From Myxococcales bacterium (lineage in GTDB: Bacteria; Myxococcota_A; UBA9042; JABWCM01; BTVJ01): 64,000 bases of DNA. Below, piece after piece: positions 7,992-17,704 of the stretch. The position numbers and the translations under genes were made by a program. The DNA lies in the NCBI GenBank assembly GCA_045863395.1, contig BTVJ01000006.1, positions 32,001 to 96,000 on the forward strand, in the 5' to 3' direction. How positions within the stretch are numbered: position 1 is the stretch's first letter; each line of letters starts with the position of its first letter. The notes under the pieces are model-generated. The model made no database searches, was not told the origin of the DNA, and saw nothing but the letters and a program-made list of their open reading frames with translations.

Positions 7992-8576
7992 TCAGTGGGT
8001 TGTGTCTGTGTCGGGTGTGCTGGGGCGCTTCGGCGGGAGCCCCAGGTGCGCCTCGATGGCGTCCAGGCGGGCCCGCAGCTCGGCCAGCTCTTCCTCGGTA
8101 CGCCGCAGGTGCGGCAGCGCCGTGACCAGGAGCCGCACCCGGTCATCGAGGCGCCGCTGCACGTCCTCGATGGCCACCTGTGTCGTGTCCACCCACTCGC
8201 GGATGGCCGCCATCACCTCCTCGACGCCGTCCTTCTCTCGCCGGATGAGGCGGGTGACCGTGCGCTCCGCCTCCTCCTTGAGCGAGTGGATCGGCTCGGT
8301 GACCGTGCGCTGCAGGAACTCGCCGCCCGTCTGGATCACCTGCCGCAGCGCCGTCAGCGGGACGGCCCGCTTCATCTTCTTCTCTTCCTCGTAGATGATC
8401 TGGGCGAGGGTCAGCGCGGTCAGGTCGGCGTTGGTGTTGTTGTCCGTGACCTTGATGTTGACGCCGTCCTTGATCAGCGTCGCGATCTCTTCGAGGGTGA
8501 TGTACCGGCTCTCTTCGAGGTCGTAGAGCTTGCGGTTGGCGTAGCGCTTGATGTGTCGGAGGGGTTCGTCGCTCAT
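7992..8576 (-). CDS. PHA/PHB accumulation regulator family DNA-binding protein (PhaR-like N-terminus)
   Basis: IKRYANRKLYDLEESRYITL...LTALTLAQII; coiled-coil C-terminus. Confidence 0.85.
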   Translation of the reverse strand: MSDEPLRHIKRYANRKLYDLEESRYITLEEIATLIKDGVNIKVTDNNTNADLTALTLAQIIYEEEKKMKRAVPLTALRQVIQTGGEFLQRTVTEPIHSLKEEAERTVTRLIRREKDGVEEVMAAIREWVDTTQVAIEDVQRRLDDRVRLLVTALPHLRRTEEELAELRARLDAIEAHLGLPPKRPSTPDTDTTH

Positions 8577-8709
8577 CGGGCGTGGATTGTGCCACACTCC
8601 CCCCCATAGCCAAAGCCTTTTCGCGCCACGATCTGCCGCGACGGGCGCCTGTTGTGTCCGGGCGCGCGCCGTGGCATGGTGGCGCCGGACAACGAACCGA
8701 GGGCTGAGC

Positions 8710-9165
8710 ATGAGTATCGAGCAGGAGCTGACGCAGCGTCTCAAGGACGCCATGAGGTCCAAAGACCAGCGGGTGCTTGGGGTCGTCCGCATGATCAAGT
8801 CGAAGATCATCGAGGCACGCACCGCCAAGGGGTTCACCGGAGAGGTGGACGACGCGCTCTACCAGCAGGTGATCGCCGCCTACTCCAAGTCCATGCTCAA
8901 GGCCATCGAGGAGTACGAGGCCCAGGGCGAGCGGTCGAAAGAGATGGTCGAGCAGCTCCGCTTCGAGGTGGACTACCTGGCCGAGTTCCTGCCGCGAAAG
9001 CTGGACGAAGAGAAGACCCGCGAGCTGGTGCGCGCCAAGATCGAGCAGCTCGGAGTGCGGGACCCGAAGCGGGCCGGGCAGATCATGGGCGCGCTCATGA
9101 AGGAGCACAAGGACGCCTTGGACTCGGCGCTGACCAAGCGGGTCGTGGAGGAGGAGCTGCGGTAG
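8710..9165 (+). CDS. GatB/YqeY domain protein
   Basis: LKDAMRSKD...LAEFLPRKLDEE...GQIMGALMK. Confidence 0.85.
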   Translation: MSIEQELTQRLKDAMRSKDQRVLGVVRMIKSKIIEARTAKGFTGEVDDALYQQVIAAYSKSMLKAIEEYEAQGERSKEMVEQLRFEVDYLAEFLPRKLDEEKTRELVRAKIEQLGVRDPKRAGQIMGALMKEHKDALDSALTKRVVEEELR

Positions 9166-9175
9166 CGCAGCGGGG

Positions 9176-9233
9176 CAAGCCTGCTCAATTCTCATTGATT
9201 GGCGCGCCAAAATATGAGAACTGAGTAGGCTTG
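9176..9233. repeat. 58-bp near-perfect palindrome between convergent genes
   Basis: Symmetric about 9204/9205; 24 of 29 positions pair (CAAGCCTGCTCAATTCTCAT...TTGGCGCGCCAA...ATGAGAACTGAGTAGGCTTG). Confidence 0.85.
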
Positions 9234-9252
9234 ACCCCCGTCTCGGATCCGC

Positions 9253-10557
9253 TCAGTCCCGAACGCGAAGCTCTGCGTATGGGCCCGCCTGCTCCGCCCA
9301 GGTCGCGGCGCTGCGCCCTGCGGCGACGTGCGCGGCGGCTGCTCCGGCCATCGCCAGGCAGTGATCGATGTTGCAGTGCAGGAAGAGGCCCTGGCGCCCC
9401 ACGGGGACCGTGCGCCCGTCCGCGGTCGCCGCGGTCAGCGCCGCTCGCCACTGCGCCTGCCAGCCGCGCTCGTAGATGGGGTAGACACCCGGGAGCCAGA
9501 GCTGGTGGGCCGCGACCGGGCCAGGCACGCTCCGCCCGAGGATCCCCGCCGCCCGGAGCTGCTCGACCAGCACCGGCGCCTGCGAGACGAAGTCCCGGCC
9601 GCGGCCCCACGCGCCCTCCGGGATCTCCAGGCAGAGCACAGACTCCCGCCGGTTGTGCATGGAGTCCGAGTAGTTGGAGGCCTCGCTCACCCGCCCGAAC
9701 CAGTAGGCGCGCTCGGGGACGTAGAAGGTCTCCACGTCCGACAGGCGCGGCACGGGGAAGGCGAGGAACACCAGGTAGAGGCCGCGGTGGCGCAGCCCAT
9801 GGCCGGGAGCGAGCTGGGCGAGGGGCGCCGTCCAGACCACGCGGTCGGCGTCCGTGTCCCGTGAGGCGCGGCGACCGGTGTGCACGCGGACGCCGGCATC
9901 GCGCGCCATGCGGTCCAGCCCCGCGAGCAGCGCAGCCATGCCGCCGCGCGGGTAGGCGTACCGCTCGCCGCGGAGCCCGCGGGCGAGCATCGCCGCCGGC
10001 TGCGCCGTGGACACGCGCTTCTTGGCCACGGAGCGGGACAGGGCCGCCGGGTGGATGCCCCAGACCTTCTCTGCGTAGGGGCGGTAGAAGGCGTCGTAGG
10101 CCGCGTCGCCCACCCGGGAGCGCACGAAGGCGTCGTAGCCCTCGTCGTGGTCGCTCCTGCGGCGGTCCCGCTCCCAGGTCGCCAGCGGCGTGCGCCCGAG
10201 CCAGCCGGCGGCGAAGGAGGCGGCTCGCGCGAGCCCGAGGCCCCGCAGGAGGCCGATGGGCGACAGTGGATAGGGCAGGTGTCGCCCACCGAGCACGATG
10301 CGACCGCGCCGCGGGCGGCTCTCGAACGGCACCACGCGAGCCAGCTCACGGAGCAGGGGCTCCCCGAGCGCCTCCGGGTGGAGGCGGTGGGACCCGAGGT
10401 CGCACCCTACGCCGCGGAACGGCGCAGGGCGCACCATCCCGCCGGTCGCTTCCGCGACCTCGTGCACCTCCACCTGGAAGCCCGCGCGGCGCAGGTGCAG
10501 CGCGGCGGCGAGTCCGGTCACGCCGCCGCCGGCCACCACCGCGCGGCGGGCCCTCAC
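9253..10557 (-). CDS. FAD-dependent oxidoreductase (UDP-galactopyranose mutase/HemY-like superfamily)
   Basis: VVAGGGVTGL dinucleotide motif, GGMVR, DLGSHRLH, YAEKVWG, YPRGG, YPIY, VGRQGLF...DH; GTGA overlap with upstream gene. Confidence 0.8.
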   Translation of the reverse strand: MRARRAVVAGGGVTGLAAALHLRRAGFQVEVHEVAEATGGMVRPAPFRGVGCDLGSHRLHPEALGEPLLRELARVVPFESRPRRGRIVLGGRHLPYPLSPIGLLRGLGLARAASFAAGWLGRTPLATWERDRRRSDHDEGYDAFVRSRVGDAAYDAFYRPYAEKVWGIHPAALSRSVAKKRVSTAQPAAMLARGLRGERYAYPRGGMAALLAGLDRMARDAGVRVHTGRRASRDTDADRVVWTAPLAQLAPGHGLRHRGLYLVFLAFPVPRLSDVETFYVPERAYWFGRVSEASNYSDSMHNRRESVLCLEIPEGAWGRGRDFVSQAPVLVEQLRAAGILGRSVPGPVAAHQLWLPGVYPIYERGWQAQWRAALTAATADGRTVPVGRQGLFLHCNIDHCLAMAGAAAAHVAAGRSAATWAEQAGPYAELRVRD

Positions 10558-11165
10558 GGCGCCCGTCGCACGAGCCACAGGGCGCCCAGGGTCCAGAGGA
10601 TCATGGCGCTCCAGGACAGCCCCATGGCTGCGCCGGTCACGGGCATGAGCCACAGCCACCCGCCGGTCTTCCAGATGATCACAGGGGCAAGCACGTGCAC
10701 CAGCGAGGACAGGCCTGCGACGACGATGACCGATCCGGCGACCGCCGCGTGAAGCCCGCAGAGCATGAAGAGGTGGGCGAGGATCAAGAACACCACGCTC
10801 ACCGAGAACAGGTGCTGGTGGAACACATCCAGCACCCACGGGCGCTTCAGGTCCTCCGGTGGCGCCAGCGCTGGCGCCGCCTCCGTGGGCTCGGGCTCCA
10901 GGTCGAGGGCGGGGCCGCCCAGCCCGCCCTCAAGCTCGGCGCCCACACTGGGACCGACCGGTCCTCCCACGGGCCGGTTGACGTACCGCTCCTCGACGCT
11001 GGGCTCCCCCGTCGGGCCGGACAGCTCGGGTCCGATGCGGTCCGCGTAGATCACCCACGAGGACCAGACCCCGACGGCGATGAACACCAGGAACAGGGTG
11101 TAGACGAGCTTCGCGGGGACCGGGAGGTTGGCGGCCTGGTAGCCCTTGCGGACGAACAGCTTCAC
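10554..11165 (-). CDS. Uncharacterised membrane protein with His residues in TM helices
   Basis: About 4 TM segments; FHQHLFSVSVVFLILAHLF and SLVHVLAP; overlaps both neighbours by 4 nt. Confidence 0.7.
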   Translation of the reverse strand: MKLFVRKGYQAANLPVPAKLVYTLFLVFIAVGVWSSWVIYADRIGPELSGPTGEPSVEERYVNRPVGGPVGPSVGAELEGGLGGPALDLEPEPTEAAPALAPPEDLKRPWVLDVFHQHLFSVSVVFLILAHLFMLCGLHAAVAGSVIVVAGLSSLVHVLAPVIIWKTGGWLWLMPVTGAAMGLSWSAMILWTLGALWLVRRAP

Positions 11166-11740
11166 GGCGCAGACGTGCTCGCGAGGGTCTTGAGGCCCGG
11201 CTTGATCAGGAGCTCGTCGACGAGCACCAGGGCGCGGCGGGCTCCGTTGGCCATGGACTTCGACGAGATGGTCGCCCCCGTCACCGCGACGATGTCCGCC
11301 CCGTGCCGCACGGGGTCGGAGGCCTTCCGGCCCACGAACTGGCGCCGGAAGCGCCCCTCGCGCACCTCGTCGCCGTGGGACTCGCGGTAGACCATGATCT
11401 CCAGGCGCTTCATGGCGCCGTCGGTCCCGATGAGGACCCCGAAGGTAATGGGCTCGTGCTGCCCGAGCTCGTTGTCGATGATCGCGAAGCCGTCGACCGT
11501 GGTGCCCGTCATACCGTAGTAGACCGTCACCTCGGCGGGCGGGCGCTTGCCGAGGCGGTTCTCTACCGCCGCTCGCTGCGTCGCGTCGAGCGCGAGCTTC
11601 TTGAAGGTCACGCGCTGGGACGTCGAGAAGAAGTCCTTGAGCAGGGACGCCCGGTCCCAGTAGACGGCCTGCGCGGTGGCATCACTGCTCCAGGCTCCCA
11701 GCAAGAGGACCGCCATCGTCGTCGTCAGGATCTTGATCAT
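11162..11740 (-). CDS. Exported FMN-binding domain protein (flavinylation motif)
   Basis: Signal peptide; G.HEPITF, EIMVYRESHGDEV, FRRQFVG, DIVAVTGATISS ([S/T]GA[S/T] motif). Confidence 0.85.
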   Translation of the reverse strand: MIKILTTTMAVLLLGAWSSDATAQAVYWDRASLLKDFFSTSQRVTFKKLALDATQRAAVENRLGKRPPAEVTVYYGMTGTTVDGFAIIDNELGQHEPITFGVLIGTDGAMKRLEIMVYRESHGDEVREGRFRRQFVGRKASDPVRHGADIVAVTGATISSKSMANGARRALVLVDELLIKPGLKTLASTSAP

Positions 11741-11759
11741 CGCTCTGATTCCGTTGCTA

Positions 11760-11776
11760 TTGAAAATCAATTTCAA
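11760..11776. promoter_or_regulatory. Fur-box-like palindrome 1
   Basis: TTGAAAATCAATTTCAA, 20 nt upstream of the FMN-binding gene start. Confidence 0.8.
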
Positions 11777-11788
11777 CAAGTCGTGCGG

Positions 11789-11817
11789 ATGATAACGAGC
11801 CTCGCCGCGTCACGCAA
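11789..11817 (-). promoter_or_regulatory. Sigma70-like promoter just upstream of Fur box 1
   Basis: Minus strand TTGCGT, 17-nt spacer, TATCAT. Confidence 0.6.
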
Positions 11818-11897
11818 GCACTTTTTCTGGAGCTTCGTATCCAATTTCAGTCGTCCGTTTCTATTGGCCTTTCACGGACCATGGCGCGCTCACCCCG

Positions 11898-12452
11898 TCA
11901 GGGGAGCGTCGACAGCGCCGAGTCCGCGGCGGCGTCCATGTAGGCCCGGTAGTCCATGTCTGCGCGGTAGGTGCGCACCGTCACCGCCTTCGGGCCGTTC
12001 TCGCCTGACCACAGGACGGCGCCGTCGCGCCCCACGAGGCGCAGCGCCAGGTCGACGACCACGCGGCTCTGCGTGCGCATGTGGCCCGCGTCGAAGGCGC
12101 GGAGCTCCGACAGCAGCACGGCGTCCACCCCGAGCCGCTCGGCGAGCACGCCAGGGGCAGGGCGCGGTCCCTCCCTGTCGATGGTCATGAGCGCGTGGCG
12201 CATGACCTCGGGGGCCATCACCGGGTAGCCCTCCGTCGCTACGCCGGACAGCAGCGCGTCGTGGAGTGCGTCCCGCGGCCCGCCGCTGCCGAGGATCACA
12301 CGCAGCGTGCTCGTCTCAGGCGCCCGCGCCACGACACCCGGCGCCACCTCCACGGGTAGCACCGCCACGTACAGCGGGCCCGCGCCGGAAGGTGAAGGCA
12401 GTGGCGCCGTGCTCGCGCACCCGACCAGCAGCACCGCGAGGAGCCACCGCAT
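11898..12452 (-). CDS. Lipoprotein (GNA1162/LpoB-like alpha/beta fold)
   Basis: MRWLLAVLLVGC lipobox; VAVLP...LGVDAVL...LRLVG.DGAVLWSG; TGATG overlap with the porin gene. Confidence 0.65.
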   Translation of the reverse strand: MRWLLAVLLVGCASTAPLPSPSGAGPLYVAVLPVEVAPGVVARAPETSTLRVILGSGGPRDALHDALLSGVATEGYPVMAPEVMRHALMTIDREGPRPAPGVLAERLGVDAVLLSELRAFDAGHMRTQSRVVVDLALRLVGRDGAVLWSGENGPKAVTVRTYRADMDYRAYMDAAADSALSTLP

Positions 12453-13738
12453 CAGAAGAGCCACGCCATGGACGCCACGAACTTGGGCTCCGGGTCCCAG
12501 TTGCCGCTGAACAGGTTGCGCGACACGCCCCCTGCGCCGTTGGTGACGAGCTGGACCTCGGTCTTGATGACGTAGGCCTCGATGGGACGGAAGTTCAACC
12601 CGAAGGTCAGCTTCTGCACGTCGTTCTCGTCGACGCGGTCCAGATCCGTGTCCGTGTCCTCGTAGCGGATGACGCCCGTCATGGTGGCGTCCGCCATGTC
12701 CGGCGGGAACAGGTCGAACAGCCCGGGGATGGGGAAGTGCATGTTGGCCTGCACGTAGAAGCCCTGCATGGCCCGGGGGACCGCCTCGCGGGTATTGGTG
12801 GGGCTGCCCGGCGAGAACCCCTCGACGAAGCCCTCGTCGATGAACGCCCGCACGTACTCGCCCAGGAACTCGAACCAGCCGAACTGCAAGGTGATGTCCG
12901 CCCCGACCATGTTCACCCGGTTGTCGGCGTCGTCGTACACGCCCGTGTACCCGCTCACGCCGACGTCGATGCCGAGCATGGGGCTGAGCCCGATGCGACC
13001 GACCACCGCCTTGTCGTCGTTGTTGTCCTCCAGCTTGGAGCCCACCGCGCCCTTCATGCCGTGCTTCCGGTCGATCTTCGCGTCCAGGCCGTTTATCACG
13101 TAGACCTCGTAGTCGAGGAAGACGTCCGCGCCGAGGTCGATGTCGCCGAGCAGGCCGAAGCCAGCCTCGAACCACGTCGTCGGCGTGATGGTCGTCAGGG
13201 GCTTGGGGCGCTCCGTCAGGTCGCGGGTCGGAGCGTCGTGCCGGATGTTGAAGGCCCCGAAGGGCACGAGGATGATCCCCCCGCGCAGGATCATCCAGTC
13301 GTCGATCTTGAAGTCGACGACGCTGAACTCCAACAGCACCTCACCCGCCCCCTGCACGCCGTCCTTCTTGAGGGGCGAGCCCGCGAACTCGAACTCGATC
13401 TCCGTGGACGTGGAGATGCGCTCCGAGAGCTGGCTGTAGACGAACAGCACGTAGCGGTGGGCGACGAACTCGGAGTCCTGCCCCGCCGCGTTGTGGTACT
13501 CGATCTCGCCGTAGCCGCCGATGACGGTGCGGTCCACGATGCGGCCGACCCGCGTCGTCAGGTCGTCCCCTATCCGGGCGTGCTCGGGTGAGGGGACGTC
13601 ACCCTCCGGCGTGGTGGTGTCCACCGTGTCAGAGCCGTCCAGCTCCAGGACCGGCCCCTCGTCAGCCTCCTCGCTGCGCACCGCGGTCGGCAGGGTCAGG
13701 CCCAGGGCCACCAGCCCCGCTGCAATCATGATCCGCAT
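12452..13738 (-). CDS. Outer-membrane porin (OprO/P-like)
   Basis: Signal peptide, IGGYGE, HRYVLF, EIEFE, GIILVPFG, PTTWFEAG, INGLD, C-terminal AWLF. Confidence 0.78.
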   Translation of the reverse strand: MRIMIAAGLVALGLTLPTAVRSEEADEGPVLELDGSDTVDTTTPEGDVPSPEHARIGDDLTTRVGRIVDRTVIGGYGEIEYHNAAGQDSEFVAHRYVLFVYSQLSERISTSTEIEFEFAGSPLKKDGVQGAGEVLLEFSVVDFKIDDWMILRGGIILVPFGAFNIRHDAPTRDLTERPKPLTTITPTTWFEAGFGLLGDIDLGADVFLDYEVYVINGLDAKIDRKHGMKGAVGSKLEDNNDDKAVVGRIGLSPMLGIDVGVSGYTGVYDDADNRVNMVGADITLQFGWFEFLGEYVRAFIDEGFVEGFSPGSPTNTREAVPRAMQGFYVQANMHFPIPGLFDLFPPDMADATMTGVIRYEDTDTDLDRVDENDVQKLTFGLNFRPIEAYVIKTEVQLVTNGAGGVSRNLFSGNWDPEPKFVASMAWLF

Positions 13739-13766
13739 CGTCGCTCCTCGTGGGCTTCTGTTAGGG

Positions 13767-14897
13767 CTACTGGGTGCAGAGGGCAGGCACGTCGAGGCCG
13801 AAGACCGTCTTGACGGCGCCGATCATGAAGGCCGTGTCGACGGTCTCGGGGTCGTCCTTGGCCACCTCGGCGGCCATCTTGGCGGCCAGGGCTGCGTCCA
13901 CCGATGCGATGTACGGCTCGAGGATGTGGAAGAACATGCGCCCCTCGATGACCTTGATGAAGGGCTTGTCCCCTGCATCGATGCCGATGTACTCGCGGGC
14001 AAAGGAGATGGCGAAGACCTCGAGGAGCATGCGGTCGATCTCGTCGATGGTCTCCTGCAGATCCGCCGGGATGGTGTCCAGGGCGTCGGCGTCCCCCGAC
14101 TTGCCGGCGGCCTTCAGCGCCGCGTCGAGCTGGTCGCGTCCTTGGATGAGCGCCGCGTGCAGGTCGCGGGCGTAGGTCGTCCCGCAGTTGGTGTCGCGGG
14201 TCGCCGCGGTCTTGCCGATGCCGGATGCCTTGGCCGGGTCGCCACCGAAGTCGAGGCCGGAGTACCCGAAGCCCTCGTCCCACTTGGCCCGCGCCCCCTG
14301 GACCAGCTCGTGATGGACCGACTGGTAGAAGAAGTGCTGGAGGCCCTTGTCCAGCACCTGGGAGTGCCAGCCGAGCCCGTTCAGGTCATCTCTGCCCGTG
14401 GTGTCGGGGACGGCGCTCCCCGCGGCGATGGCGTCGCAGATGCGTCCATGGATCTGCTTGCCCACCTCGGCGCCCAGGTTGAAGGCGTGGTCGTCCTTGC
14501 GGCCCGCCACCTTGGCGGCGAGCTCGGCCGTCTCCACGTAGAGGCTGGCGAGCTTCGTGGGGTCCGACGGCGTGGTGACGTCTCCGCTCCACTGGTCGCA
14601 CGCCCCCCCGAAGTCCGCCGCCTTGAACGACTCCCCTTTGCGGATGGTCTGGATCTGCTCGTAGGCGCCCACCCGCAGGAGCTGGTTCTGGAGGTTGGCC
14701 TGCGAGAACGGAGCGTACGTGGTCGACGGGCCGCCCGTCGCGTCGCCGCCTCCCTTGCCGCCGTTGCCGCCGCCACCGGTGTTCGTTGCGGAGTCGTCCG
14801 ACGAGTCGCAGGCTCCGAGCCCGACCGCCAGGCAGATCCCGATGATGCCGCCGATGGTGCCGATGCTGCCGATTCTGCCAAAGGATCTCAGGGTCAT
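13767..14897 (-). CDS. Helical lipoprotein, DUF4856-like (putative iron-binding)
   Basis: Lipobox LGAC; QVLDKGL and HHE...WDEGFGY motifs recalled from the DUF4856 family. Confidence 0.6.
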   Translation of the reverse strand: MTLRSFGRIGSIGTIGGIIGICLAVGLGACDSSDDSATNTGGGGNGGKGGGDATGGPSTTYAPFSQANLQNQLLRVGAYEQIQTIRKGESFKAADFGGACDQWSGDVTTPSDPTKLASLYVETAELAAKVAGRKDDHAFNLGAEVGKQIHGRICDAIAAGSAVPDTTGRDDLNGLGWHSQVLDKGLQHFFYQSVHHELVQGARAKWDEGFGYSGLDFGGDPAKASGIGKTAATRDTNCGTTYARDLHAALIQGRDQLDAALKAAGKSGDADALDTIPADLQETIDEIDRMLLEVFAISFAREYIGIDAGDKPFIKVIEGRMFFHILEPYIASVDAALAAKMAAEVAKDDPETVDTAFMIGAVKTVFGLDVPALCTQ

Positions 14898-14910
14898 GGC
14901 GACGCTCCTG

Positions 14911-15579
14911 TCACTTGCACACGTGGGCCGGGGTGGTGCACTGCGCGCCTCCCTGGCAGTCCTTGTCGTCGAAGCACGCGAACTCGCGGTGGGCTGGCTT
15001 CCCCTCGCACTTGGGCGCCGCCGGTGAGCCGGCGAGGCACCGCTTGATGGAGAGGTCGCAGCAGTGGCTGGTGTGGCAGTCGGAGGCCTTGATGCAGCAG
15101 ATGCCGGCGCACGCGCCGGAGCCCGGCTCCTCCACGCAGATCACGCCCGTGCGCACGTCGTCGGAGACGCCCACGAAGGTGACCGTGCCGTAGTAGGGGT
15201 CCACGACCTTGCGGCCGGGGTCGCCCTGGTTGGTGTCGTAGTACTCGTAGATGCCCGGCGCGGTGAAGGTGTGCCGCCACCAGACGTAAGGCTTCCCGTC
15301 CGCCTCGGAGAGGTTGTAGGGCTCCACCAGGCTCGGGGAGTAGAGCTCCGGCGGCTCTCCGAGGCTGGTCACGTTGGTGGGGATGTTGGGCGCCTGGTTG
15401 CGCCACTCCACCGTCTGCCCGACCTGGATGGTCAGGCAGGGCACCCCGTGGGTTCCCTCCGACGTGATGGGGACGATGTTGCCGCCCGGGTCCGCCATGC
15501 TCGAGTGCTGCACGTAGGGCGGCGTCTGCTGGGTGCTGCACGCGGCCAGGGCCAGCAGCGTCAGGATCTGAGGCTTCAC
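14911..15579 (-). CDS. Cupredoxin-fold lipoprotein with Cys-rich tail
   Basis: LAAC lipobox; LTIQVGQTVEWRN...HTFTAPGIYEYY plastocyanin-like pattern; C-terminal Cys cluster. Confidence 0.7.
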   Translation of the reverse strand: MKPQILTLLALAACSTQQTPPYVQHSSMADPGGNIVPITSEGTHGVPCLTIQVGQTVEWRNQAPNIPTNVTSLGEPPELYSPSLVEPYNLSEADGKPYVWWRHTFTAPGIYEYYDTNQGDPGRKVVDPYYGTVTFVGVSDDVRTGVICVEEPGSGACAGICCIKASDCHTSHCCDLSIKRCLAGSPAAPKCEGKPAHREFACFDDKDCQGGAQCTTPAHVCK

Positions 15580-17054
15580 TGCGAGATCTCCTTGGCGTTC
15601 GTTGCCAGGATGCCGGCGTCGGCGAGCGACGTGTTTGGACGCCACTCCCACACCACCAGGAACGGCGCGTGGGGATCGACGAGCGGGCTTCGCTCGAAGC
15701 GCGCTCGCTCGACGAGGCGCCCCGGCAGGGACGCTGCGCCTCGCACCCCCGACGTCACGAGGATGGTCCGCGGGACGTTGCCGCGGTCGGTCACGTCGCG
15801 CAGGACGTCTGCCGCGTCCCGGACCAGGACGGACCTGTGCGCGGGGGCGTTGAAGCGGAGCACGCCGGTCTCTTCACCTGCGTAGACCTGGAGCTGCTCT
15901 GGCGGGCGCGCCGCGAGCCACGCCCCGGCCTGGGCGGCGGGCGAGGGGCGCGACGCCTCCACGAGGTGCGGGAGGGTCACCGCGGCGATGGCGATGGGCG
16001 CGAGGGCCAGCGCAGGGCGGAGGCGTGACCCGACACGCGCCGTGGCCGGGGCGGCGCCGAGGACCAGCAGCGGGAGGAGCGGCAGCAGGTGGCGAGGCTT
16101 CTCCGGGTTCTGCCCGATGGCCACCCAGGCGGCGTAGGGCAGCGCCAGGGCGAGCAGCGTGAAGGTCCAGCGACGCCCTGGGCGGGAGGCGGCCAGCAAC
16201 ACACCCAGGGTCGCCGCTGCTGCAGGACCGAGCAACACGGTGAACAGGTTGTGGGCAAGCAGCGTGAGGCGCTCCGTCGCACCCGGGGCTCCGGCGGCGA
16301 GCGCCGTGCCCCCCCACGCCTCGAAGTGCCCGCGGGTGAAGCGGGCGCCAATATCGATGAGCGCAGCGGGACCGCCCGCGAGCGCGACCAGTGGCGCGAG
16401 CCACGCCGCCGCCACTGCCGCCGCCAGCCCGACCCGAACCAGGCGCTCCCGGCGGTTGGCGCCGGCGAGGGTGAGCGCCAGCCCCACCGCGGCGATGAGG
16501 ACGCTCGATGCGCGAATGCCCGGCAGGAGCGCAAAGGCGACCACCGCAAGGCGCGCCCACGGCAGGCGGCCCCAGATGGGAGCGCCGGTCGTCCCCGCGC
16601 CCGATGCGCCGGCGAAGAGGGCCGCTGCCCCCAGCGCAACGAGCTGCGCCCCGAGGCCGTCAGAGAGCGGGGTGGCGTCGGCGACGCAGAGACCCGGCAG
16701 CGTCGCGACCAGGGCGGCTCCGAGCAGCGCGGAGGCCCGACCGTAGCGCAACAGGGCGGCGCCGGTCGCGGCGACCGTCACGGCCGAGAGCGCGACTGCC
16801 GGCAGGGCGAGCGCGACGGCAGGGCTGAGCCCGATGGCTCGCAGCGGCCACGCCAGGGCGAGGAACACGGGGTAGCCCGGAAAGTGGGGGCGGTGCGCCT
16901 CCAGGTCGAAGCGATCCAGCCCCAGGGCGAAGTTCACCGCGTCGTGGTCGGGGAGCGTGGAGCCCATGGCGATGACGCGCAGGACGACGGCAGCAGCGCC
17001 CAGGGCGGCGAGCCACGCCCAAGTCCTCCAATCGTCTCGCCAGCTTCGCTCCAC
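15576..17054 (-). CDS. Polytopic membrane protein, GT-C/PMT_2-like glycosyltransferase fold
   Basis: About 10 TM segments; D.DAVNFALG..RFD...HRPHFPGYP loop after TM1; LSD; KPRHLLPL; GTGA overlap with next gene. Confidence 0.65.
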   Translation of the reverse strand: MERSWRDDWRTWAWLAALGAAAVVLRVIAMGSTLPDHDAVNFALGLDRFDLEAHRPHFPGYPVFLALAWPLRAIGLSPAVALALPAVALSAVTVAATGAALLRYGRASALLGAALVATLPGLCVADATPLSDGLGAQLVALGAAALFAGASGAGTTGAPIWGRLPWARLAVVAFALLPGIRASSVLIAAVGLALTLAGANRRERLVRVGLAAAVAAAWLAPLVALAGGPAALIDIGARFTRGHFEAWGGTALAAGAPGATERLTLLAHNLFTVLLGPAAAATLGVLLAASRPGRRWTFTLLALALPYAAWVAIGQNPEKPRHLLPLLPLLVLGAAPATARVGSRLRPALALAPIAIAAVTLPHLVEASRPSPAAQAGAWLAARPPEQLQVYAGEETGVLRFNAPAHRSVLVRDAADVLRDVTDRGNVPRTILVTSGVRGAASLPGRLVERARFERSPLVDPHAPFLVVWEWRPNTSLADAGILATNAKEISQ

Positions 17055-17073
17055 CGTCGCCTCGTTATCGAAG

Positions 17074-17090
17074 TTGAAAGTCACTTTCAA
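17074..17090. promoter_or_regulatory. Fur-box-like palindrome 2
   Basis: TTGAAAGTCACTTTCAA; differs from box 1 at 2 of 17 positions, both followed by CAA. Confidence 0.8.
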
Positions 17091-17100
17091 CAACGACGCA

Positions 17101-17130
17101 TTTATAGCGGCGCTCTCTGGCGGCTGTCAA
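17101..17130 (-). promoter_or_regulatory. Sigma70-like promoter just upstream of Fur box 2
   Basis: Minus strand TTGACA, 18-nt spacer, TATAAA. Confidence 0.65.
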
Positions 17131-17248
17131 CGAAAAAAATCGGGACAAGTCGACGTGGAGATCTTTTTTTCGCGGGGCGCTGTGAAGGGGCAGGAGCGGC
17201 CCACCGGCTTCACACCTTCTACGTGGCAGGGGCCCAGGGATCAGCCCG

Positions 17249-17704
17249 CTACGCGGCCTCTCGGCACGCGGCGCAGAGGCCGTAGAGCTCCATCTTGTGG
17301 TGGGTGAGCTGGAAGCCGTGCTCTGCCGCCATGCGGTCCTGGAGTGCCTCGATCTCGGGGTTCTCGAACTCCACGATGCGCCCGCAGCCCGTGCAGATCA
17401 GGTGGTCGTGGTGATCGTCGTGGGCGGGGTCCGAGGGCTCGAACAGCGTGGTCTTGTTGCCGAACTGGGCGGCCGCGGCGAGCCCGCACTCCTCGAGGAG
17501 CTTCAGCGTCCGGTACACGGTCGCGTAGCCGATCGACGGATTGCTGGCGCGCACCCGCTGGTACAGATCGTCGATGTTGACGTGCCGCCCGGCGCCGGTC
17601 GCGAAGAAGGCCTCCGCGATGGACATCCGCTGCGGCGTCAGGCGCAGCCCGGTGTCCTTGATGTGGCGCCGCAGGGTCTCGCGCCAGTCCTCGTGCTCGG
17701 TCAT
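17249..17704 (-). CDS. fur: Fur family transcriptional regulator
   Basis: LRLTPQR, H before helix 3, GYATVYRTLKLL, HHDHLICTGCG.IVEF, HKMELYGLCAAC. Confidence 0.93.
   Translation of the reverse strand: MTEHEDWRETLRRHIKDTGLRLTPQRMSIAEAFFATGAGRHVNIDDLYQRVRASNPSIGYATVYRTLKLLEECGLAAAAQFGNKTTLFEPSDPAHDDHHDHLICTGCGRIVEFENPEIEALQDRMAAEHGFQLTHHKMELYGLCAACREAA

Follow-up and report, generated by a model that had tools for sequence, protein, structure and literature searches.

What is encoded by a compact run of genes that lies directly behind a fur gene and falls into two blocks, each headed by a palindrome? This question is raised by a 64,000-nucleotide stretch of DNA of a Myxococcales bacterium (assembly GCA_045863395.1, contig BTVJ01000006.1, positions 32,001 to 96,000; the whole stretch is referred to as the window), in which eight co-oriented minus-strand genes, g1-g8, are tightly packed directly after fur (17704-17249). 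Our analysis revealed a real, conserved and iron-linked system, which probably assimilates iron by means of flavinylation; neither its membrane partner nor its add-on appears to have been described. The locus is composed of two layers: a core (a porin, an FMN_bind protein and an Aq_1264_TM protein; g4, g6 and g7) and the add-on (g1, g2, g3 and g8). Its features, in the direction of reading, are the following:

17249..17704, minus strand: fur (PF01475, E 1.6e-36), which closes the upstream gene run and has no box of its own
17101..17130, minus strand: block 1 promoter-like site, TTGACA-N18-TATAAA, read by eye
17073..17091: Fur box 1, a perfect 9-1-9 palindrome, 24.6 bits
15576..17054, minus strand: g1, GT-C-fold membrane glycosyltransferase (PMT_2/TMEM260-like)
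14911..15579, minus strand: g2, lipoprotein with a cupredoxin-like domain and a Cys-rich tail
13767..14897, minus strand: g3, all-helical lipoprotein, remote kin of FEA1 (PF07692) and DUF4856 (PF16148), predicted iron binder
12452..13738, minus strand: g4, outer-membrane beta-barrel (Porin_O_P-like)
11898..12452, minus strand: g5, small lipoprotein, weakly GNA1162-like (E 0.03)
11789..11817, minus strand: block 2 promoter-like site, TTGCGT-N17-TATCAT, read by eye
11759..11777: Fur box 2, 30.1 bits
11162..11740, minus strand: g6, exported FMN_bind protein (PF04205 above cut-off) with the ApbE motif T-G-A-T157
10554..11165, minus strand: g7, four-helix membrane protein of the family Aq_1264_TM (PF27139)
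9253..10557, minus strand: g8, cytoplasmic FAD enzyme of the PRK07208/UDP-galactopyranose-mutase-like group

The genes overlap at four junctions (g1/g2, g4/g5, g6/g7 and g7/g8), and their GC content at third codon positions is 0.88-0.96. An initial annotation of this DNA had already described eight packed genes in two blocks, each with a palindrome, and the coordinates, overlaps and two-site pattern agree with that description. It had also stated that no TonB receptor, FeoB, FTR1 or ABC permease is present; in Pfam and NCBIfam profile scans no such gene was found among g1-g8. Its calls of a GT-C protein, a cupredoxin-like protein, a DUF4856-like protein and a porin for g1-g4 were borne out by profile evidence. 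The sigma70-like promoters fared less well: the hexamers can be read by eye at both blocks, but a strict promoter scanner called neither site.

The regulatory sites provide the clearest link to iron. The pattern TTGAAAnTCAnTTTCAA occurs at exactly two sites in the window (17074 and 11760), each box being placed just downstream of its own -10 element; the mean expected by chance was 0.05, and four strand-matches were reached in none of 100 shuffles. A palindromic motif was also learned de novo from other genomes, using the regions upstream of their porin, FMN_bind and GT-C genes; the window was excluded. It converged on ATTGAAAATCATTTTCAAT, which agrees with the delta-proteobacterial dFUR consensus WTGAAAATNATTTTCAW presented in the available part of PMC545781. 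None of 407 control upstream regions reached 12 bits or more. Scanning of the whole genome (8.77 Mb) revealed only three sites of at least 15 bits, namely the two boxes of the window and one located directly before feoA-feoB on contig C79 (the feoA-like gene was assigned by eye), whereas in five local shuffles 15 bits were reached by 0, 0, 0, 0 and 2 sites and 20 bits by no site. There are nine TonB-receptor matches in the genome, none of them among the boxed sites. FeoB was found in all five relatives that share this set of genes, and a box was located directly upstream in five of the six feoB loci; moreover, the box heads block 1 in all four of L154-L157. Both the feoB loci of the relatives and L154-L157 were outside the motif training set.

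These sequence data support Fur-type control with iron as the metal, as had been proposed for the box at the outset. Iron is preferred to zinc because the box fits the dFUR and not the Zur consensus, and because feoAB is preceded by the one further strong site of the genome. Of the earlier formulation "iron (or another metal)", the first half is supported; zinc was rejected, the Zur consensus sequences given in PMC545781 being different from the box. The notion of a system without a known permease does not hold either, since the feoB gene of this genome, like that of the five relatives, has the same box. The fur gene is the sole Fur-family gene found in the genome. It had been regarded as part of the unit, but its upstream region scores only -5.3 with the position weight matrix; with fur lying near g7 in 6 of 66 loci only (see below) and lacking a box in front, its general membership in the operon was rejected. 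A second feoB, which has no Fur box, was observed in L196 (1664-4571), where the preceding gene resembles, by eye, a DtxR/MntR-type regulator.

Starting from what was observed directly (the genes, their family relationships, the boxes and the co-occurrence), we propose an iron-starvation unit in which Fe(III) is reduced in the envelope for import by FeoB; we give this reading slightly better than even odds (roughly 0.55). Upon iron shortage, Fur, which is expected to bind the boxes, would leave both of them as well as the feoAB box. Fe(III) would pass the outer membrane via the g4 porin and would be held by g3, possibly with the help of the copper-less cupredoxin g2. In the inner membrane g7, a probable heme b protein (via its conserved His), would hand electrons to g6, which may be flavinylated at T157 by the ApbE encoded on contig C40. 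Reduced g6 would then convert Fe(III) to Fe(II), to be taken up by FeoAB (C79). A distinct arm, likely for glycosylation, would consist of g8, converting a nucleoside diphosphate (NDP) sugar, and g1, moving a lipid-linked sugar in the periplasm. The interpretation given in the initial annotation is supported in part; the role of g8 (see below) and the absence of a permease are not.

The core was analyzed in 66 g7 loci, i.e. the window, 60 regions picked across the E-value range of the profile matches and five loci from a porin search (two more porin loci without a g7 match were left out). A single-protein search of genome contigs gave three loci (L038-L040 are excluded from all counts) and a metagenome scan gave one, while a plasmid search with a g7 relative gave no match. 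By profile, the g7 family is present in 119 of 401 genomes of the phylum. Counted within 7.5 kb of g7, 61 of the 66 loci have FMN_bind, 44 a porin, 37 ApbE and 6 fur. The core recurs in many of these loci, and the g1-g4 block in 12 genomes. What the initial annotation had missed is ApbE, which lies beside the core in 37 of the 66 loci and elsewhere in this genome, and the link to FEA1.

In g6, T157 is conserved in 53 of 56 sequences and E120 in all 56; the surrounding motif corresponds to the [S/T]GA[S/T] flavinylation motif of ApbE as defined in the consulted part of PMC8238504. Two ApbE genes are located elsewhere in the genome, and the one on contig C40 is 60-61% identical to the locus-linked ApbEs, and would be the enzyme that flavinylates g6 at T157. 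The second (G000:C2:140370-143079) lies in a run resembling, by eye, the DUF4266/DUF3570/thioredoxin cluster of PMC8238504. In L021 (15154-17391) an ApbE fused to a thioredoxin-like domain is divergent from block 1, and one box is common to both. As regards g4, an ortholog with 63% identity passes the PF07396 cut-off, and g4 itself shows a weak match to LbtU (E 0.007).

The g7 protein is predicted to be a four-helix bundle. It had been called His-rich, which is not correct for a protein with 5 His in 203 amino acids; however, three of its His residues are conserved (H116 and H118 without exception in the 58 called genes, H131 in all but four of them, i.e. 54 of 58), and H116-x-H118 is placed near the predicted outer face. 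Fold searches returned nothing more specific than four-helix bundles (best Z 9.4, root-mean-square deviation 3.5, 125 aligned residues), and Foldseek gave nothing at E<=0.001. Prediction of a homodimer with two hemes scored 0.28 against a mark of 0.42, which is evidence in neither direction. A further clue comes from Ideonella dechloratans, in which a porin-FMN-ApbE run is closed by a membrane protein of another kind, which has four His and weakly matches DUF4405 (E 0.007, below the cut-off); DUF4405 was shown to bind heme b according to the available text of PMC11334425. Because of this substitution and the conserved His residues, we regard g7 as a probable electron donor to g6, which would carry its electrons on a predicted heme b. 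The Ideonella run (L186, 5725-8853) is carried by plasmid NZ_CP088082.1 of this cultured betaproteobacterium and has the order cytochrome c peroxidase-porin-FMN_bind-ApbE-four-His membrane gene; it represents a sister form of the core. Distant relatives of g7 (E ~1e-10) with no FMN_bind, porin or ApbE nearby form a flavin-free subfamily (L119, L120, L122 and L124).

The same residues could be read differently. The invariant HxH on the outer face might constitute the metal-binding site of a permease, with g6, which has the invariant E120 beside its flavin site, delivering or reducing the iron; the result would be an importer independent of FeoB, and of all the readings this one comes nearest to that of the initial annotation. 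Such a role for g7 would fit the lack of detectable FTR1 in this genome and in five relatives. We nevertheless regard it as improbable, since FeoB shares the box both here and in five of five relatives, a DUF4405-like four-His protein occupies the slot of g7 in Ideonella, and g7 hardly ever occurs without FMN_bind (61 of 66 loci have it).

The add-on is more restricted in its distribution. The order g1-g2-g3-g4 was identified in 12 genomes, including this one, which represent six families. The block is linked to g6-g7 in eight of them, while in the other four the two blocks reside on different contigs, each with its box; in total, block 1 is preceded by the box in 10 of the 12 genomes, and so is g6 in 10. 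The g5 gene seems dispensable: it was detected in only one other locus (L022, a 42% match).

The cupredoxin-like domain of g2 was recognized by a profile match to amicyanin (E 2e-4 to 2e-3). EfeUOB and FtrABCD combine a cupredoxin-like domain with a helical periplasmic binder under Fur, and by analogy g2 and g6 might oxidize Fe(II) for an Fe(III) permease. In contrast to those systems, FTR1, Dyp peroxidase and polyferredoxin are absent from the locus, and g3 has no imelysin match. FTR1 gave no match in the genome (97% complete) or in the five relatives either. Moreover, alignment with amicyanin revealed that the position of the Cys ligand is occupied by Asp in 12 of 12 g2 sequences and that of a His ligand by T, A, P, G, D or V; g2 is absent from 58 of the 66 core loci, and the importer that shares the box, FeoB, transports Fe(II). 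An oxidative route is thus highly improbable.

The g3 lipoprotein is all-helical; its conserved residues include R133, D135, H137, D207, E208, R234, D235, E302 and E318. Its profile found 127 relatives, of which 81 were scanned: 11 match DUF4856 (9 above the cut-off) and 5 match Fea1 (3 above). One relative at E 8e-45 (P0112) passes the DUF4856 cut-off. Alignments of g3 with one member each of Fea1 and DUF4856 gave 96% in hhalign, but these members had been picked from the hits of g3, so that the two figures are not independent evidence. A fold search with g3 gave nothing at Z>=8 and no Foldseek match, and a Fea1-domain relative of g3 had no sequence match in PDB. We conclude that g3 is a remote relative of FEA1 and DUF4856 and, by prediction from sequence, an iron binder. 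In three genomes of one genus a boxed g3 relative is followed by a TonB receptor, imelysin and HTTM (assigned with Pfam in one of them). The arrangement in L159 (8152-14136) comprises a Fur box, a g3 relative, a TonB receptor, imelysin and an HTTM/VKGC-like gene, and in P0185 a Fea1/g3-like domain is fused to a P19-type Fe2+ transport (Fe2+-binding) domain.

These neighbourhoods bear on another possibility, namely that the unit spares iron rather than acquires it. The box indicates control by iron, not transport of iron, and a Fur-controlled substitution by flavodoxin has been proposed for delta-proteobacteria (PMC545781, available part); g6 and its membrane partner might analogously replace iron-rich periplasmic carriers, the porin and lipoproteins then handling another substrate. 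This appears quite improbable for a unit that contains a porin as well as an FEA1-like binder, the relatives of which sit with a TonB receptor, imelysin and HTTM. In addition, imelysin and a di-haem oxidoreductase adjoin the core in L093.

The remaining genes, g1 and g8, point to sugar chemistry. In the case of g1, we noted an Atlas score of 0.99 to PMT_2/TMEM260-type clusters and a TMEM260 match at E 0.02; its orthologs match PF13231 and PF11028, and D38 in the first outer loop is invariant (23 of 23). On these comparisons g1 is a GT-C-fold glycosyltransferase. The g8 protein has neither a signal peptide nor a predicted transmembrane segment. It matches NF005547 (E 2e-33) below the cut-off and PF03275 with 18 bits (cut-off 26.3), and its best PDB relatives are UDP-galactopyranose mutases (E 4e-17), aligned over the FAD and substrate regions. 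Among the 66 g7 loci, g8 was found in 12 and was missing from the remaining 54, the 12 being exactly those genomes that also have the g1-g4 block; in all 12 it lies beside the flavin block or g1, also when the blocks are split. Since g8 resembles these mutases and co-occurs with the g1-g4 block, it is likely a sugar mutase which partners g1 in sugar transfer. The most plausible acceptor would be the co-encoded lipoproteins or another envelope acceptor; the N-terminal linkers of the lipoproteins contain 3-12 Ser/Thr per 32 residues, a crude count that carries little weight. A role of g8 as a ferric or haem reductase, as initially annotated, was rejected: the protein is cytoplasmic, it resembles UDP-galactopyranose mutases most closely among solved structures, and its gene accompanies that of the GT-C protein. 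A GT2 gene was detected between g7 and g8 in L084.

It is possible, though doubtful, that a single regulator controls two unrelated modules, the flavin core serving iron while g1 and g8 remodel the cell surface (lipopolysaccharide or glycolipid) without touching g2-g4. Pairs of GT-C and mutase genes were also met next to other barrels, TonB receptors or c-type cytochromes, often unboxed, and in 4 of the 12 genomes block 1 is not on the same contig as block 2. On the other hand, g1 overlaps with g2, all 12 genomes have g1 as the first gene of the series g1-g2-g3-g4, and the placement of g8 beside g1 or the flavin block is equally constant. At the other extreme, the locus might encode a complete reductive chain (porin, FEA1-type lipoprotein, flavin relay, PF27139 as a new class of cytochrome, and FeoB) together with Fur-controlled glycosylation of the iron-binding lipoproteins, which as a whole we consider unlikely. 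Two of the neighbouring arrangements are worth mentioning here. In L172 (7305-11921), L176 (7473-12110) and L178 (3986-8579) an exported protein, a porin-like barrel, a mutase-like enzyme and a GT-C protein are encoded together, with no Fur box or flavin genes. In L173 (2517-8822) a Fur box has a mutase-like gene on one side and, on the other, a cluster for c-type cytochromes, which ends in a GT-C gene of the same subfamily.

Several observations weigh against reductive import through FeoB with a linked glycosylation arm. As regards the core, g7 has no cytochrome match in Pfam or NCBIfam (E<0.1; none to PF03929, PF01794 or PF14358), and its fourth position (residue 157) varies, with H in 29 of the 58 sequences and D in another 19, which leaves three conserved His compared with the four of the PepSY, MsrQ and DUF4405 proteins; the three His and the H/D position could pair across a dimer, by analogy with FezC. 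The presumed ApbE is encoded outside the locus, on contig C40, and is unboxed. A 15-bit box was found in 51 of 61 loci with FMN_bind and g7, a count that is partly circular, and not in the other 10, some of which end at contig edges. As for the add-on, 7 of its 12 genomes come from one family and are not independent. The type-1 copper ligands (the His, Cys, His, Met set) are missing from g2, and g3 matches neither PF07692 nor PF16148 directly, the link being transitive and remote. The tie of glycosylation to iron is partial: the GT-C/mutase pair occurs without box or flavin core in L172, L176 and L178, and among 14 strong GT-C loci without the g1-g4 block only 3 have a box, an intact mutase-like neighbour being present in 5 and a fragment in a sixth.

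Comparison with known systems places the proposed iron-starvation unit close to, but outside, several of them. PepSY-like (FoxB/VciB), MsrQ-like and DUF4405 systems, as described in the accessible parts of PMC8238504 and PMC11334425, share with it the exported FMN_bind protein with [S/T]GA[S/T], ApbE, a His-bearing membrane partner, Fur control and the link to a ferrous transporter. Unlike in these systems, the partner is a PF27139 protein with three conserved His and no profile match to theirs, the unit has a porin of its own, the ApbE gene lies apart from this locus, and FEA1-like, cupredoxin-like and glycosylation genes have been added. The mode of working therefore appears similar, judged by sequence, but by profile the locus belongs to none of these groups. 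The words "porin" and "glycosyl" are absent from the main texts of both papers.

The porin psp was described as part of the delta-proteobacterial FUR regulon by Rodionov 2004 (PMC545781) and was proposed to serve Fe(II) entry; it is PF07396-like, lies behind dFUR boxes in small regulons with feoAB, and has a homolog in Aquifex. The g4 porin, which is also PF07396-like, boxed and in a small regulon together with feoAB, probably belongs to the psp family, and the family of g7 is named after an Aquifex gene. In contrast to the present locus, no flavoprotein or membrane partner is described with psp in that part of the paper. The algal FEA1 is a periplasmic protein induced at low iron, with an unknown mechanism; it was proposed to concentrate iron close to transporters and is expressed with the FRE1 reductase (PMC8098128, available part), and Ot-Fea1 was found iron-loaded (PMC4855317, available part). 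The parallel lies in a proposed iron-concentrating protein expressed with a membrane reductase and in a WDEA-type motif shared by eye. However, g3 is a lipoprotein of remote similarity, the uptake partner here would be FeoB and not FOX1/FTR1, and the proposed reductase is a flavin relay. As to glycosylation, g8 aligns with UDP-galactopyranose mutases and g1 has the loop Asp of GT-C enzymes (PMT/TMEM260/ArnT-type), but, unlike systems combining such enzymes, this locus contains no GT2 or flippase gene. No report of a mutase and GT-C pair under Fur was found. Searches of the open-access literature, outside the large cluster list of PMC8238504 (which may hold such clusters unlabelled), turned up neither the core nor the add-on; three other supplementary files of that paper gave no match.

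About half of the ApbE-bearing genomes had no characterized flavinylation system when surveyed (PMC11334425, available part). The core supplies a candidate membrane partner family without a known function, which is present in approximately 30% of the phylum sample, and the three-site regulon makes its link to iron unusually clean. The add-on places an FEA1 relative in a compact bacterial operon, i.e. it provides a genetic and biochemical handle on FEA1 and DUF4856, and it suggests, as a testable idea, that iron limitation is tied to envelope glycosylation. If the complete reductive chain with its own glycosylation pair proved true, bacteria would have an equivalent of the algal FEA1-FRE1 route, and an uptake operon would for the first time be seen to include protein glycosylation under iron control.

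The source labels of close relatives are Myxococcales or Myxococcota. The locus, together with its flanks, was also found on long, >99% identical contigs in two sludge RNA runs (made without iron treatment). The depth was lower over block 1 and breaks occurred near both promoters; such contigs are unable to rank the genes. Genes for a PhaR-like regulator and YqeY flank the locus (7992-9165 of the window), and similar genes flank feoAB in L194. Between the converging yqeY and g8, the window carries a long hairpin (9170-9240; z -4.5 and -6.0), partial copies of which were detected on at least 15 other contigs; it is a repeated palindrome resembling REP (repetitive extragenic palindromic) elements and lies outside the system.

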